Positions 6,352-11,384 of a stretch of 43,824 nucleotides of DNA are shown one piece after another. Below the pieces are notes generated by a model. That model was not told the origin of the DNA and ran no database searches. It was given only the letters and a program-made list of their open reading frames with translations. The translations under genes were made by a program, and so were the position numbers. Source of the DNA: Fimbriimonadaceae bacterium (GTDB taxonomy: Bacteria; Armatimonadota; Fimbriimonadia; Fimbriimonadales; Fimbriimonadaceae); the NCBI GenBank assembly GCA_046719655.1, contig JBDNCL010000001.1, forward strand, positions 1 to 43,824, given 5' to 3'. Each line of letters begins with the position of its first letter. Within the stretch, counting starts at the first letter, position 1.

Positions 6352-7569
6352 TTAGGGGTTGGTTCTGGGGAACTCGAACCACTCGATCTGCTTGACCGGC
6401 ACGAAGCCGTCCCGCCGGACTTCCAGCACGAGGGCCGGCTTTTGGGCGTTGCCGTCGGGGCCGATCGTGATGCTGCCCGAAACGCCTTCGAGACCCTGGG
6501 TCGCGGCGATCGCGTCCCGAACCGCCTGCGGGGTGAGCTCGGTCGCCCGCTTCAGGGCATGGAGAACGACCATCGTCGCGTCGTATCCGAGGGCGCCCAT
6601 GGCGGTTGCCGGGGGAGCGCCGTACTTGGCCTGGAACTTCTGAACGAAGTTCTGGACGGCCGGTCGCTGCTCCGAGTTGTGGTAGTGGTTGAGGAAGAAC
6701 CCGCCGATGATCCCCTCGCCGCCAGCGTCGATCAGCTTCGTGCTGTCCCAGCCGTCGCCGCCGAGCATCTTCACGTTGAGTCCGACCGTCAAACGCTGAC
6801 GGGCGATGGGCCCGACTTCGGTGAAGTATCCGGAACAGAACAGCCCGTCGGGGTTCATCCCCTTGATGCGGGTGAGCTGGGCCATAAAGTCGACCTTGCC
6901 GCTCTCGTAGAACTCCTCGCCGACAATCGTCCCGCCGAGGGCGGTGAACACTTCCTTGAAGCGGTTGGACAGCCCGGTCGAGTAGGGAAGCCGACGGTCG
7001 GTCATGACGGCCACGCGCCGAAGACCGAGGTCCTCGTAGGCATACTTGGCGAGCGCCGCTCCCTGAAAGTCGTCGGTGAAGCAGGCCCGGAAGACGAATC
7101 TCTTGCCCTCGGTGAGGTCGGTTCGGGTGGCCCCGACCGCCACCAGGGGGACGCCCTGCGATTCGGCCACGTCGGCGGCCTGGATCGTGATGCCGCTCGC
7201 GACCTCGCCGATGACGGCGATGACCCGGTCTTCGCCGATCAGCTTCTCGGTCGCCGACTTTCCGCCCTCGGGTCGCGAGTTCGTGTCTTCGACGATCAGT
7301 TCGACCGGTCGACCGTTGATGCCGCCGGCGGCGTTGATCTCTTCCACGGCGAGCATCGCGCCGCGGTGCGAATCGACGCCCCAGGGTTGTTGATCGCCGT
7401 TCAGGCTTGCGATCATCCCGATGCGGATGGGCTGGCCGGAAGCACCGGCACCGCCCTTGGCTGCCCCGCCGCCTTCGCCTCCGGAGGGCGAGCATCCCGC
7501 CATCCAGACGGTCATCCCGAAGACCGCGGCTGCAACCGCTCCAAATGCGCGCAGTTTTTTCATGGTCAT
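6352..7569 (-). CDS. livK: ABC transporter substrate-binding lipoprotein, Leu/Ile/Val-binding (LivK/LivJ) family
   Basis: Start MTMKKLRAFGAVAAAVFGMTVWMAGC, with lipobox MAGC. Followed by IRIGMIASLNGDQQPWGVDSHRGAMLAVEEINAAGGINGRPVELIVEDT, which is typical of type-I periplasmic binding proteins of the LIV family. Confidence 0.9.
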   Translation of the reverse strand: MTMKKLRAFGAVAAAVFGMTVWMAGCSPSGGEGGGAAKGGAGASGQPIRIGMIASLNGDQQPWGVDSHRGAMLAVEEINAAGGINGRPVELIVEDTNSRPEGGKSATEKLIGEDRVIAVIGEVASGITIQAADVAESQGVPLVAVGATRTDLTEGKRFVFRACFTDDFQGAALAKYAYEDLGLRRVAVMTDRRLPYSTGLSNRFKEVFTALGGTIVGEEFYESGKVDFMAQLTRIKGMNPDGLFCSGYFTEVGPIARQRLTVGLNVKMLGGDGWDSTKLIDAGGEGIIGGFFLNHYHNSEQRPAVQNFVQKFQAKYGAPPATAMGALGYDATMVVLHALKRATELTPQAVRDAIAATQGLEGVSGSITIGPDGNAQKPALVLEVRRDGFVPVKQIEWFEFPRTNP

Positions 7570-7713
7570 GTCTCGTTTTGGCCGGCGGCCGGATCGTGTC
7601 CGACCGGCCGCGAACGCCCAGTATACAGAACAGGTCCGCCGTTCGAACTCATTCCGGGTGGGAACTTGTCCTTCTCGGCCCACGGCACCGGCATTTCTGT
7701 CTGGAGTTCATCC

Positions 7714-7719
7714 TATAAT
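7714..7719 (+). promoter_or_regulatory. Perfect -10 hexamer TATAAT upstream of the TPR gene
   Basis: TATAAT at 7714-7719 in the livK/TPR divergent region, 52 nt upstream of the TTG start at 7771. No good -35 seen. Confidence 0.4.
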
Positions 7720-7770
7720 CAGCCCGGGGCACGCGGGAAGTGGGCGCCTTCGAATCCCCGGGAGGAAAGT

Positions 7771-8778
7771 TTGTCTCAAGAACAGGCCAAGCAGTTCGTC
7801 GACCAAGCCGTTCAGTCCATCCAGGGTGGGCAGTTCGCTCAAGCCCTCGAACTGTTGAACCAGGCCGTCGAGCTTCATCCGGAAAATTCGGACGCGCATG
7901 TCCTCAAAGGCGTGGCCCTTTCTCAGTTGAAGCAGCCCGACGCGGCCGTCGAAGCCTTCCGGAAGGCGATCATGCTGAGCCCATACAACGTGAAGGCCTA
8001 CTTCAACCTCGCGGTGCACTACTACGGCGTCGGCGAGAAGCTCCGAGCCGAGGAGATGGCGCGAGAGGCGGTTCGCGTCGATCCGCGGCACGCAGGCGCG
8101 AGAGATCTCCTGAATCGAATCGAGTCCGAACGCACCCCGACCGAAGTCGGCGTCCGCACGACCGAGCCCGACCCGCAGCATCCGTCCGATCCGGCGGTGA
8201 CGCCGCCGCCCGGGACCGAGTACCCGCCCAAAGCGGAAGTCCCGCGGCCGACGGAGACCCCCTCGCCGTCCGCCCCTCCGTCGATGGGCGCGCCCCCGCT
8301 CGGAACGGGAATGGCGCCTCCCCCCGGCAGCGCCGGATCTTCGCCGGGCGGATATGTGCCTCCGGCCGGGACCGCTCCGGGCGGCTACTACCGGCCAGGC
8401 TACGAGCACCCGCAGGTGCACAGCCTGAACTTTGTCGAGAACATGGGGGCGGGTTGGACCAAGGCGGGATGGGGACTCGCGATCGTCGGCACGATCATCT
8501 TCGTGATCAGCTTCATCATGACGATCGCGATGTGGGGCACGATCATGTCCTCCGCGAACCAACCGCCCGACTTCTCAAGCATGTTCGGCGGCAACGCGCT
8601 CACGATGGTGCTGAGCCTTGTCGGCTGGCTCGTCCAGATCGCAACCCTGGTCTGGATGGTCCTCGAGTTGGCCGACCGCCGCGGCAACTGGATGTGGATG
8701 TTGCCGTTCACGCTTTGCTGCTGTTGCGGCCTCCAGGGGCCGGTCGTCATGATCTATCTCTTGAAGGGAAGAGAGTAG
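7771..8778 (+). CDS. TPR-repeat protein with a proline-rich linker and a C-terminal 3-TM domain containing a CCCC motif
   Basis: TTG start at 7771, preceded by GGAGGA (7761-7766). About three TPRs (FAQALELLNQAVELHPENSDAHVLKGVALSQLKQPDAAVEAFRKAIMLSPYNVKAYFNLAVHYY...), then a P/G/S-rich stretch, then hydrophobic helices ending in LPFTLCCCCGLQGPVVMIYLLKGRE. Confidence 0.75.
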   Translation: MSQEQAKQFVDQAVQSIQGGQFAQALELLNQAVELHPENSDAHVLKGVALSQLKQPDAAVEAFRKAIMLSPYNVKAYFNLAVHYYGVGEKLRAEEMAREAVRVDPRHAGARDLLNRIESERTPTEVGVRTTEPDPQHPSDPAVTPPPGTEYPPKAEVPRPTETPSPSAPPSMGAPPLGTGMAPPPGSAGSSPGGYVPPAGTAPGGYYRPGYEHPQVHSLNFVENMGAGWTKAGWGLAIVGTIIFVISFIMTIAMWGTIMSSANQPPDFSSMFGGNALTMVLSLVGWLVQIATLVWMVLELADRRGNWMWMLPFTLCCCCGLQGPVVMIYLLKGRE

Positions 8779-8864
8779 ATGCCGACGAACAAACAAGGGA
8801 GACTCGCCGGGAACGTTAGGGGCGGAACCGGCGTTGACCCACTCGAGGAGCCGATCGAGGGCTA

Positions 8865-9266
8865 ATGAGAATCGTCGCTTTGCTGACCATGTTGCTTTTC
8901 GGCGGAGTATTTGTCTCCGCCGAGAGCGCATGTCCGCACACCGATTGTCCAGCCTGCCACCCGTCTACCGTTCCGCCGGTTGAGTCTTGCTGCTCGACAT
9001 CGATCGACATCGAGGCCGTCTGCACAGCGGCCGACGCTGGCGCAGCGTGCCCTTGCTCGGTATCGCCCGGAACGTCGGCAGAATGGCCAGACAGTTTTGC
9101 CGTCTTGCCGGCACCGGCTCCCGAGGTTCACTTTGAGCGACTCGTCTGCCTGCCGGGTCGGCCTTCTGACGACCTCGGTTCGGCCAAACCTGCCGAGAGC
9201 GACCGGCGGCCCCGAGGGCCCCCCGGTTCGGGACCCGGCTCTCCTCGTGCTCCTCCGATGGTCTGA
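8865..9266 (+). CDS. Secreted cysteine-rich hypothetical protein (10 Cys, one CXXCH motif)
   Basis: ATG preceded by GAGGG. Signal peptide MRIVALLTMLLFGGVFVSAES, then ACPHTDCPACHPSTVPPVESCCSTSIDIEAVCTAADAGAACPCS. Third-position GC is lower than in neighbouring genes and the tail is Pro/Gly-rich, so confidence is moderate. Confidence 0.45.
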   Translation: MRIVALLTMLLFGGVFVSAESACPHTDCPACHPSTVPPVESCCSTSIDIEAVCTAADAGAACPCSVSPGTSAEWPDSFAVLPAPAPEVHFERLVCLPGRPSDDLGSAKPAESDRRPRGPPGSGPGSPRAPPMV

Positions 9267-9338
9267 CGTAACGTTCTGCCGCATCGCGGCTTAGGTTCGT
9301 CAGTTCGGCATTTTGCCCAAGACCATCGGAGTTATCCC

Positions 9339-9698
9339 ATGAAGTCCATCTTCGTAGCGATCGCCCTTGTTGCGATTCTCGCCGTCGTCGCTTTTGCGAC
9401 CCAGACCAAGAGCCCGTCGACCGTCGCGGCCGCCGCCGAAACCGCATGCGCGGCTTGTTGCGGCGACAACTGCGCCGCCTGTTGCGGCGTCAGCTGCGAC
9501 ACTTGTTGCGGCGAAAAGGCCGAAGGCGCGACCTGTTGCGCCACCGCCTGCACGGACTGCACCGAAAAGGGTTGCGCCACGTGCTGCGCCGGCAACTGTG
9601 GAGCCTGCTGTGGAGAAGCGGTGGAGGCCAACGCCAAGACCGAAGCCGAAGCCAACCACGGATGTGGCGGGTGCCCGGCAGATGCGGCCAAGGCCTGA
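9339..9698 (+). CDS. Secreted or anchored cysteine-rich repeat protein (21 Cys; C-x-x-C-C-G-x-x octapeptide repeats), metallothionein-like composition
   Basis: GGAG lies 7 nt upstream of the ATG. Signal/anchor MKSIFVAIALVAILAVVAFA with an AFA-TQ cleavage-like site. Mature part: CAACCGDN CAACCGVS CDTCCGEK ... CATCCAGN CGACCGEA ... HGCGGC. Third-position GC is high. Confidence 0.6.
   Translation: MKSIFVAIALVAILAVVAFATQTKSPSTVAAAAETACAACCGDNCAACCGVSCDTCCGEKAEGATCCATACTDCTEKGCATCCAGNCGACCGEAVEANAKTEAEANHGCGGCPADAAKA
9447..9518 (+). repeat. Three tandem 24-nt (octapeptide) coding repeats inside the Cys-rich gene
   Basis: tgcgcggcttgttgcggcgacaac / tgcgccgcctgttgcggcgtcagc / tgcgacacttgttgcggcgaaaag. 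Each unit encodes CxxCCGxx. Confidence 0.85.
9573..9620 (+). repeat. Two more tandem 24-nt octapeptide repeats (CATCCAGN, CGACCGEA)
   Basis: tgcgccacgtgctgcgccggcaac / tgtggagcctgctgtggagaagcg, in frame with 9339. Confidence 0.8.
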
Positions 9699-9722
9699 CG
9701 CCCCCTAGGCAGATCGGAACCG

Positions 9723-9749
9723 CGGCCCCACCGGCGACCGGTGGGGCCG
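9723..9749. terminator. GC-rich hairpin between convergent genes (no U-tract)
   Basis: CGGCCCCACCGG cga CCGGTGGGGCCG: a 12-bp perfect stem with a 3-nt loop, lying between the stop at 9698 (+) and the stop at 9756 (-). Confidence 0.55.
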
Positions 9750-9755
9750 TCGCAT

Positions 9756-11384
9756 TCAGGATGTCGGTGAGTCGGAATCGGGGCCGTGCGGGGGCGCCAG
9801 GTGGACGGTGTGGGTCGGGAAGGCGAACTCGACGCCGATCTCGTCGGCGATCCGCCACACGTCGAGCAGCAGCCGCTCCCGCAGAGCCAGTTCGTGCGCC
9901 CAATCGTCGGCATCGAAGAAGACCTGGATCAGCACGTTCAGGGAGCTGGGTGCGTACTCGAAGAAGCGCACGACGCTTCGCTCTTGGACGACGTTCGGGT
10001 GCTCGTCCAGAATCTGTCGGATCCGGCCGACGAACTCAGTCACCTTCTCCGGCGGCGTCGAGTACACCAACGAGACAAAGGTGCGCAGGCGCCGGGCGCG
10101 ACGACGCCCCATGTTCTCGATGTTCGAGGTGACGAGCCTCGAGTTGGGGACGGTGACGAGAGAGTCGTTGAAGGTGCGGATCCGGGTGCTTCTCATCGTG
10201 ATGTCTTCGACCACCCCCTCCACGTCGCCGACGATCACCCAGTCCCCGATCTGATAGGGCGACTCGAACAAAACGGTCAGCGAACCCAGGATGTTCTCCA
10301 CGCTGTCTTTGGCCGCCAGCGCGAGGATGGCGCCGCCGATCCCGAGACCGGCGACCAGTCCCACCACGTTGACCCCGAGAGCCGCCAGCATCCAGATCAC
10401 CACGCCGACGCCGAGGAAAACCCGGCCCAGGTTGCGGGCGATCGGAAGGATGAGGCGTTCGCTCCGGTCGGAGACTTGCCCGGCCCGCCGCCCCAAACCG
10501 GCGATCGCCAACTCCCACACGGCAAAGAGGAGCCAAAGCCACGCCGCCGCGTACAGGAGAATGAGGGCGATTCGCAGAGGGCCGCTGACCGAAACGGGCA
10601 GGCCGAGGAAGACCAGCCCCCTCGAGAGCAGAAAGACGTTGACCACGAAGCTGAGGGCCCGAAGGGCCGAACGCACCTTCTTGCCTTCGACAACTCTCTC
10701 GAGGGCCCTCAGACGGGTCCGCATCAACAGTCCGGTGATGAGTCGAACCAGCAACCCGGCCAGCCACGCGAGCGCGACGAGTCCGGCGAGACTCAGCCAC
10801 TGCCACTGCTCCAAGCCTCCGACCGAGTTGTGCAGCGACGTCGGGAACTGGCCGCGGAGCCACTCGTCGGGAGGCAGGGCCGTGGCGGGGTTGTCCGCCA
10901 ACTCGGGCACGACGGGGCGGTCCCGCACCAGGTTCCAGATCTCGTCCACTTCGGCCAGGGTATCGGTCGTGAATCGCCAGGCACCCGTCGGATCGCGGGC
11001 GATGACGATTCGGCCGACCTCGTTTCCCAAAGGGTCGCGGTAGATGTGGAACACGAACGGCTCGCCGTCGCGATCGTTCGGGATCCGGTCCAGCCTCACA
11101 TAGACCGTTCGGTTGAGAATGGCCCAAAGACGGTAGGCCAGTTGCGATCCGCGCTCTCCCCTCACGACCGCGGGGTAGGTGGACAGGTCGAGCGTGGTCA
11201 CGGCGCGGCTGAGGTCGCTGCCGTTCATCGCCTCCAGGAAGGTCTGCATCGTGGCCCGCGGCGACCTCAGGTCGTTCGGCACCCCGACGGCCGCCGTTCC
11301 CGGCGCGTCGCCGGTCGGACCGGGCGTCTGGCTGAAGGCTCCCAAGGAAACGAGGCAGAGGACGAGCGCAAGAGTGCCGCGCAT
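9756..11384 (-). CDS. Mechanosensitive ion channel (MscS) family protein with an N-terminal periplasmic domain
   Basis: Signal peptide MRGTLALVLCLVSLGAFSQ and several TM helices. MscS core: AAKDSVENILGSLTVLFESPYQIGDWVIVGDVEGVVEDITMRSTRIRTFNDSLVTVPNSRL. Confidence 0.9.
   Translation of the reverse strand: MRGTLALVLCLVSLGAFSQTPGPTGDAPGTAAVGVPNDLRSPRATMQTFLEAMNGSDLSRAVTTLDLSTYPAVVRGERGSQLAYRLWAILNRTVYVRLDRIPNDRDGEPFVFHIYRDPLGNEVGRIVIARDPTGAWRFTTDTLAEVDEIWNLVRDRPVVPELADNPATALPPDEWLRGQFPTSLHNSVGGLEQWQWLSLAGLVALAWLAGLLVRLITGLLMRTRLRALERVVEGKKVRSALRALSFVVNVFLLSRGLVFLGLPVSVSGPLRIALILLYAAAWLWLLFAVWELAIAGLGRRAGQVSDRSERLILPIARNLGRVFLGVGVVIWMLAALGVNVVGLVAGLGIGGAILALAAKDSVENILGSLTVLFESPYQIGDWVIVGDVEGVVEDITMRSTRIRTFNDSLVTVPNSRLVTSNIENMGRRRARRLRTFVSLVYSTPPEKVTEFVGRIRQILDEHPNVVQERSVVRFFEYAPSSLNVLIQVFFDADDWAHELALRERLLLDVWRIADEIGVEFAFPTHTVHLAPPHGPDSDSPTS

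Follow-up and report, generated by a model that had tools for sequence, protein, structure and literature searches.

To our knowledge, the periplasmic metal buffers known so far are folded domains or enzyme-modified peptides. Copper storage proteins of the Csp1 type are exported, cysteine-lined four-helix bundles in which many Cu(I) ions are stored extracytoplasmically. The metallothioneins known from bacteria are described as cytosolic proteins (PMC8790569). Bufferins, which are Cys peptides exported by the Sec route, chelate copper in the periplasm; DoxX is discussed in their gene clusters, and DoxX/MauE-like membrane proteins are sometimes clustered with them (PMC12452194). No exported metallothionein and no CxxCCG motif was described in the literature library that we searched. 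Here we analyze a locus in a 43,824-nucleotide (nt) stretch of DNA (the window) from a Fimbriimonadaceae bacterium of the phylum Armatimonadota (assembly GCA_046719655.1, contig JBDNCL010000001.1, positions 1 to 43,824, forward strand). Two adjacent genes of this locus, here called P2 and P3, may encode an exported, metallothionein-like metal-binding pair that was horizontally acquired, a reading that we put forward tentatively. A first-pass annotation of the window had joined P2 and P3 to the upstream gene P1 in a single candidate metal/redox module.

Sequence features of P2 and P3

The pair comprises the following features:

8865 to 9266, plus strand: P2, open reading frame (ORF) for an unannotated, Pro-rich predicted exported protein of 133 amino acids (aa) with 9 Cys, the upstream partner of P3
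9296 to 9318, plus strand: block TTCGTCAGTTCGGCATTTTGCCC, 23 nt, in the P2-P3 spacer, from alignment with the related locus L005
9339 to 9698, plus strand: P3, ORF for an unannotated, metallothionein-like predicted exported protein of 119 aa with 21 Cys and CxxCCGxx octads
9447 to 9514, plus strand: 24-nt tandem repeat encoding the first three octads of P3 (Tandem Repeats Finder, 2.8 copies, 81% matches)

The ATG of P3 is preceded at 7 nt by GGAG. The N-terminus of P3 is of the cleavage type (between AFA and T), leaving a mature part of about 99 residues, and that of P2 is signal-peptide-like (VSA followed by E); both AxA-type sites were judged by eye and not with SignalP. The 21 Cys of P3 lie mostly in CxxCCGxx octads and include five CxxCC triads, and the mature protein is 21% Cys, with 0 aromatic residues and 1 His. 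P2 contains 21 Pro, a Pro-rich tail, and CxxC, CC, and CPC motifs. The first-pass annotation had credited P2 with a signal peptide, the string CPHTDCPACH, and 10 Cys; the first two were borne out, and the Cys count is 9. Its description of P3 as a signal-peptide protein with 21 Cys in CxxCCGxx octapeptides was correct.

AlphaFold gave no confident fold for either protein (P3, predicted local distance difference test [pLDDT] of 53.6 and predicted template modeling score of 0.28, with no four-helix bundle; P2, pLDDT of 54). Searches of Pfam and NCBIfam at E values up to 1 returned no significant match for P3 and none whatever for P2, so that both stand outside named families, as had been proposed. 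Sequence searches of the PDB with the P3-like alignment and with P2 likewise found no relatives. P2 was also considered as a c-type cytochrome on account of CPACH, and was rejected as such: the His is absent from the positional analogs (CGACA, CPACA, and CDACC), and there is no cytochrome c domain.

P3 and P2 as protein-coding genes

Across all public data searched, the sole close homolog of P3 was P0004 (81% identity, also 119 aa), whose locus, L005, is a 1.5-kb Logan contig syntenic with the window from the tail of P2 into the MscS gene. Between the two loci, P3 had a ratio of nonsynonymous to synonymous substitution rates (dN/dS) of 0.15, close to the 0.13 of its MscS neighbor, with 11/13/42 substitutions at codon positions 1/2/3. 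All 21 Cys were kept in L005 despite several TGC/TGT changes, and the homolog, which is called as a gene there, has its start and stop codons, ribosome-binding site, and signal peptide intact. The other frames gave dN/dS values of 0.9 to 2.3, except for the wobble-sharing antisense frame, which extends into the MscS gene and lacks any start or signal features. This comparison clearly points to purifying selection on P3, which is almost certainly a real gene.

For P2, L005 covers the last 35 codons, about a quarter of the gene, over which dN/dS was 0.25 and substitutions were 4/7/16 by codon position. No long antisense ORF shares the wobble frame of this tail, the antisense frame not being open over it. 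No P2 homolog was found in 5.8 billion proteins or in 40 relatives of the window's genome. We consider it very likely, judging from the substitution pattern, that P2 is a real gene too.

That one or both ORFs, mainly P2, are chance open frames in DNA of 65% GC is very improbable. Such an explanation would draw on the flat codon-position GC and non-coding-like codon score of P2, on the shortness of the stretch (35 codons) over which P2 can be compared with a relative, and on the public record: the exact P2 and P3 proteins are absent from a collection of 15 billion proteins, i.e., neither was called as a gene there, and both appear to be unannotated. It conflicts with the third-position excess and low dN/dS, which are confined to the annotated frame and the wobble-sharing antisense frame, the latter closed over the P2 tail; with the intact gene signals of P3 in L005; and with the partners that occupy the same position at other loci. 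P3 itself has a codon score near zero because Cys codons dominate it.

In the spacer between the two genes, block TTCGTCAGTTCGGCATTTTGCCC was 100% identical in L005, versus 75% identity across the whole spacer, and it may be P3's own promoter, operator, or other regulatory site. Rfam gave no significant match across positions 7500 to 9900, this block included.

A P3-like class across phyla

P3-like proteins were seeded by DNA patterns encoding CxxCCGxxCxxCCG in GTDB genomes and CCGDxCxxCCG in JGI metagenomes. Most pattern matches were simple-sequence repeats, many apparently eukaryotic, and were discarded. Outside the pattern, the P3-like proteins have an N-terminal signal peptide or lipobox, a length of 48 to 167 aa, and two octad blocks. 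Their composition, 15 to 25% Cys with 0 to 2 aromatic residues, was found in P3 and 13 others, and odd and even Cys counts were equally frequent among them, without a parity rule. The members are from the following sources:

L106: Planctomycetaceae metagenome-assembled genome (MAG), with the relative L274/P0007
L081: Hydrogenedentales MAG
L070: Verrucomicrobiota MAG, a lipoprotein
L257, L231, L237, L260, and L208: unlabeled metagenome contigs
P0006: a further P3-like member
L069 (labeled Methanosarcinales), L127, and P0008: a related archaeal P3-like group

A hidden Markov model (HMM) built from the bacterial P3-like proteins, with P3 and P0004 left out, picked P3 as the unique match among 21,756 ORFs of its own genome (E = 6.3e-10), and a BLASTP comparison of P3 with the L106 protein gave an E value of 2e-8. 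None of these proteins matched Pfam or NCBIfam, eight analogs being among those tested. The P3-like class is an undescribed one that recurs across phyla.

Closer to the window, P3 was absent from the 40 relatives, and the P3-like profile had no match in a sample of 400 genomes from 208 genera of the window's own phylum. Because of this absence and of its atypical codon usage, the pair was probably acquired by horizontal transfer. An exhaustive HMMER search of 1.84 billion representatives returned only P0004 and a spurious 2,156-aa repeat protein (P0005), rejected as a low-complexity chance match, and the P3 alignment, used to guide protein-level scans of genome and metagenome contigs, returned nothing. 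Composition-biased sequences like P3 are poorly served by such profile searches. Gene callers and profile searches alike overlook small Cys-rich genes of this kind, since P2 and P3 are lacking from the 15-billion-protein collection and composition corrections suppress such sequences in profile searches.

Archaeal-type paralogs were observed at L069 (6994 to 7338), L127 (1477 to 1803 and 4087 to 4392), and L271 (8001 to 8480). They are exported-type proteins of 100 to 160 aa that end in CxxCCGxNCxxCCG, carry extra CTCP/CGxNCGG motifs, and have no upstream partner. A separate observation concerns another contig of the window's own genome (C168, 6087 to 6245, minus strand), which carries a 52-aa ORF, MSEEQTTTMNNCPCCADRKCPCPPCQDGICTCPCCANGNCPCPENCPNCDCC, with 16 Cys and no signal peptide. 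This ORF has a third-position GC content of 0.79, GAGGG before its ATG, and no Pfam match, and is a candidate cytosolic metallothionein.

Pairing of P3-like genes with an upstream Cys protein

An exported-type Cys protein is encoded upstream at about 8 of the 10 bacterial P3-like loci with enough upstream sequence. This partner is small, begins with a predicted signal peptide, contains CC, CxxC, and C-x-C motifs, and is Pro-rich toward its C-terminus; its gene lies directly upstream on the same strand. It is present in the window and at L106, L274, L081, L070, L257, L208, and L260, and probably at L272/L273. The exceptions are L231, which is too short to judge; the archaeal loci, which have no partner; and L237, where the position directly upstream is taken instead by genes for a MASE1-type histidine kinase and a sigma-54-dependent response regulator. 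Small exported-type proteins with at least 6 Cys account for 1 of the 2,145 gene-like ORFs in the window's genome, and at this base rate the association is not due to chance.

Between L106 and L274, the partner had a dN/dS of 0.28 and the P3-like gene one of 0.33, pointing to purifying selection on both. The partners have their position, export-type signal, and Cys motifs in common, and the sole sequence link of P2 is to the L081 partner (z of about 3.5, BLAST E of 0.008, common CPCSVS). The pair appears to be self-contained, because the neighbors vary between loci and none suggests a pathway in the window. Taken together, these observations suggest that P2 and P3 are a two-gene unit that recurs and is under selection.

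Two loci deserve separate description. At L237 (310 to 3346), the P3-like gene lies 260 nt downstream of the two-component genes, a layout that recalls stress-induced periplasmic proteins; a sigma-54 promoter before this gene was considered and dropped, as no GG-N10-GC (-24/-12) element could be seen by eye. At L208 (448 to 2434, minus strand), three same-strand genes encode an exported-type Cys partner, a P3-like fusion, and a membrane protein with HMA (weak) and MauE domains. The P3-like head of the fusion is joined to an unnamed C-terminal domain of about 80 aa (KVTGTLVCAACAL...KPTKVDLK).

Proposed function of the pair

As a metal-binding pair, the reading that we tentatively favor, P2 and P3 would form a self-contained cassette between the family-conserved P1 and the convergent MscS gene, and both would be exported by their predicted Sec signal peptides. 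P3 would be an extracytoplasmic metallothionein-like protein without a stable fold of its own, each of whose CxxCC(G) triads could offer three thiolates. In the periplasm, it would sequester or buffer soft metal(loid) ions as metal-thiolate clusters, the candidate ions being Cu(I), Zn/Cd, Hg(II), and As(III). P2 would be its obligate partner, which might load or unload metal, sense metal, or keep the thiols usable. The lack of a Cys parity rule speaks against an architecture made up obligatorily of disulfides and is in line with folding only around metal.

The metal/redox function suggested in the first-pass annotation is in keeping with the metallothionein-like composition of P3, and a function is still something that we infer. 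The gene after the pair at the distant L208 locus, a fusion of a weak HMA domain and MauE, is the only direct contextual hint of metal or redox chemistry; the two-component genes upstream at L237 are a second hint from gene context. A broader proposal is that the pair is an undescribed mobile two-gene extracytoplasmic soft-metal system, consisting of an exported thionein built of CxxCCG three-thiolate units and a Cys/Pro-rich partner. Its range would take in Planctomycetaceae, Verrucomicrobiota, and Hydrogenedentales MAGs and the window's lineage, with partner-less relatives in Methanosarcinales-labeled MAGs. We regard this proposal as possible but doubtful.

Several points weigh against a metal-binding role for a conserved pair. 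The metal binding, expression, and export of P2 and P3 are all deduced from sequence. No metal-resistance or metal-sensing gene was seen near the locus in the window, and the neighbors of the other loci differ among themselves and are mostly not metal-related. The shared motif of the P3-like class is partly a matter of construction, the class having been seeded by motif. Homology between P2 and the other upstream partners lacks statistical support: an HMM of the partners built without P2 misses P2, and pairwise z-scores between partners are mostly below 3. The GC content of P2 is flat over the three codon positions (0.65/0.65/0.65), and its codon log-odds of -0.35 are non-coding-like. Finally, the periplasm is oxidizing, and 21 exported thiols could simply form disulfides there.

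Disulfides are central to an alternative in which P2 and P3 are structural proteins, cross-linked by intermolecular disulfides in the envelope or surface layer. The chlamydial Cys-rich OmcA/OmcB complex works by such cross-linking, and cystine- and proline-rich walls have been reported for planctomycetes. Both proteins here are exported-type and Cys-rich, P2 is Pro-rich (21 Pro), and an oxidizing periplasm favors disulfides. Several of the analogs come from Planctomycetota or Verrucomicrobiota, that of L070 being a lipoprotein, as is OmcA, and the family of MauE, the L208 neighbor, is tied to disulfide formation. A structural component would, however, be expected in relatives, and the pair is absent from the 40 relatives and the 400 genomes of the phylum. 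The Cys counts without a parity rule also speak against this alternative, and Pfam gave no match to chlamydial OMP3/OMP6 or other families. We judge a structural role to be unlikely.

A role in periplasmic thiol buffering against oxidants or electrophiles, or in carrying sulfane sulfur or polysulfide, rather than in metal binding, seems rather improbable to us. The evidence from composition is the same for this role as for metal binding, and MauE/DoxX-type membrane proteins such as that at L208 are linked to the handling of thiol or oxidative stress. Against it, a reductase, DsbD/CcdA-type, or sulfur-metabolism gene was adjacent in 0 of the loci examined, and the CxxCC geometry and lack of aromatic residues are more typical of metal thiolate sites.

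It is highly improbable that P3, and perhaps P2, is a bufferin-like ribosomal peptide precursor whose Cys would be modified by a remotely encoded enzyme. Bufferin-type precursors combine a Sec signal peptide with conserved Cys and act as copper chelators in the periplasm, stand-alone precursor genes exist, and one putative MNIO-associated precursor group carries CxxCC (PMC12452194). P3 resembles them in its Sec-type N-terminus and in its Cys, all of which are kept in the relative. However, the MNIO family (PF05114, DUF692) is absent from the window's genome, which is 94.5% complete, in a search in which a Caulobacter control scored. P3 as a bufferin was rejected on this ground, and P2 and P3 are taken not to be MNIO-type peptide precursors. 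P3 also has no DUF2282 match in Pfam, and 99 mature residues with 21 Cys are large for such a peptide. Radical-SAM, YcaO, cyclase, protease, and other maturation genes are lacking within about 10 kb of the pair, as the first-pass annotation had held, and the first four were not seen among the scanned neighbors of the other loci. Nor was there, in either setting, a dedicated transporter or maturase as in a generic cluster for ribosomally synthesized and posttranslationally modified peptides.

P1 and the flanks of the locus

The pair is flanked by the following features:

7714 to 7719, plus strand: TATAAT hexamer upstream of P1, read from the sequence, within the region from which P1 and the Liv binding-protein gene diverge
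7771 to 8778, plus strand: P1, ORF with a TTG start for a 335-aa membrane protein with TPR repeats, a Pro-rich linker, and three transmembrane segments
8716 to 8727, plus strand: CCCC codons (residues 316 to 319) in the third transmembrane segment of P1
9723 to 9749, no strand assigned: GC-rich hairpin, from folding, between the convergent P3 and MscS genes

The three ORFs lie on the plus strand in the order P1-P2-P3, separated by 86 and 72 nt, where the first-pass annotation had placed them, and its outline of P1 as a TPR, Pro-rich, three-transmembrane protein with CCCC in the last helix also holds. The TTG of P1 at 7771 is preceded by GGAGG; the protein has TPR repeats (Pfam E of 1e-15), 35 Pro, and three hydrophobic segments. 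Its coding signal is strong (GC by codon position of 0.64/0.49/0.83, codon log-odds of +0.30) and ordinary for this 65% GC genome, and the exact protein is present in the public 15-billion-protein collection.

The C-terminal membrane domain of P1 (window 8407 to 8775) is conserved in 19 of 41 genomes, from the same family and order. The domain defines a family seen in the window and at L007 to L017, and an alignment of 11 sequences showed the conserved block W..D..DRRGNW.W..P...CCCCG....YL..GR, with one invariant Cys in the last helix, at least 2 adjacent Cys in all 11, and CCC or CCCC in 7. None of these 11 members matched Pfam, and a PLDc_N-type assignment, suggested by a resemblance, was rejected on finding no such match in any of them.

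In those relatives with P1 whose gene neighborhoods were read, P1 adjoins the Liv binding-protein gene, as in the window, and is followed within about 30 to 80 nt by a gene for a protease-like (retropepsin/PDZ-like) protein of about 389 aa. In the window's genome, that gene lies on a different contig, and P2-P3 therefore occupy a lineage-specific junction. Neither P2 nor P3 was found in the 19 relatives with the P1 domain, and no P1-like gene lies beside the P3-like loci elsewhere. The single P1-P2-P3 module of the first-pass annotation was accordingly abandoned: P1 is a distinct, lineage-conserved membrane protein, unrelated to the Cys-protein pair. Of the conservation looked for in relatives, that of the trio failed, whereas the P2-P3 pair recurs in other phyla.

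The two signals that had been said to bracket the locus are both present. The hairpin folds strongly (-35.9 kcal/mol, z of -2.8) and has no T tract; its stem is retained in L005, with an altered loop, and it is likely a bidirectional terminator of P3 and MscS. A consensus scan found no -35/-10 promoter pair near the TATAAT, leaving the hexamer as a candidate promoter. The other neighbors of the pair in the window are genes for the Liv transporter, MscS, TetR, GH2, a GGDEF protein, and LemA.

Comparison with known systems

If P2 and P3 do bind metal, an unmodified Sec-exported thionein with its partner would be a new way of buffering copper, zinc, cadmium, mercury, and arsenite before they reach the cytoplasm, and the pair would lend itself readily to bioremediation or metal capture.

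P3 is like the metallothioneins (SmtA/BmtA, MymT, and those of fungi and animals) in being small, with 15 to 25% Cys and essentially no aromatic residues, in its CC/CxxC/CxC spacing, and in having no stable fold predicted without metal. It differs from them in its predicted Sec signal peptide and its dedicated upstream partner gene. In addition, P3 matches no Pfam or NCBIfam metallothionein model, those for SmtA/BmtA included, and our literature search found no description of its regular CxxCCGxx octad as a metallothionein pattern.

In contrast to the Csp1-type bundles, P3 has no confident fold or bundle (pLDDT of 54) and no Pfam match, and the Gly after each CC argues against long helices. 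OmcA and OmcB, which serve here as a lead only, are small exported Cys-rich (lipo)proteins encoded by neighboring genes in a related superphylum. P2 and P3 match them neither in sequence nor in Pfam and make up an accessory, sporadic cassette rather than a core envelope component.

The bufferins (BufA1/DUF2282 and BufA2 Buf_6/12Cys) and oxazolins are likewise small Sec-exported Cys proteins thought to handle periplasmic metal, and the MauE neighbor at L208 recalls the clustering of bufferins with DoxX/MauE. However, neither MNIO nor DUF2063 genes occur beside the pair or elsewhere in the genome, and P3 has no DUF2282 signature; P3 is set apart from these peptides by a much larger number of Cys in each chain and by their arrangement in tandem octads.

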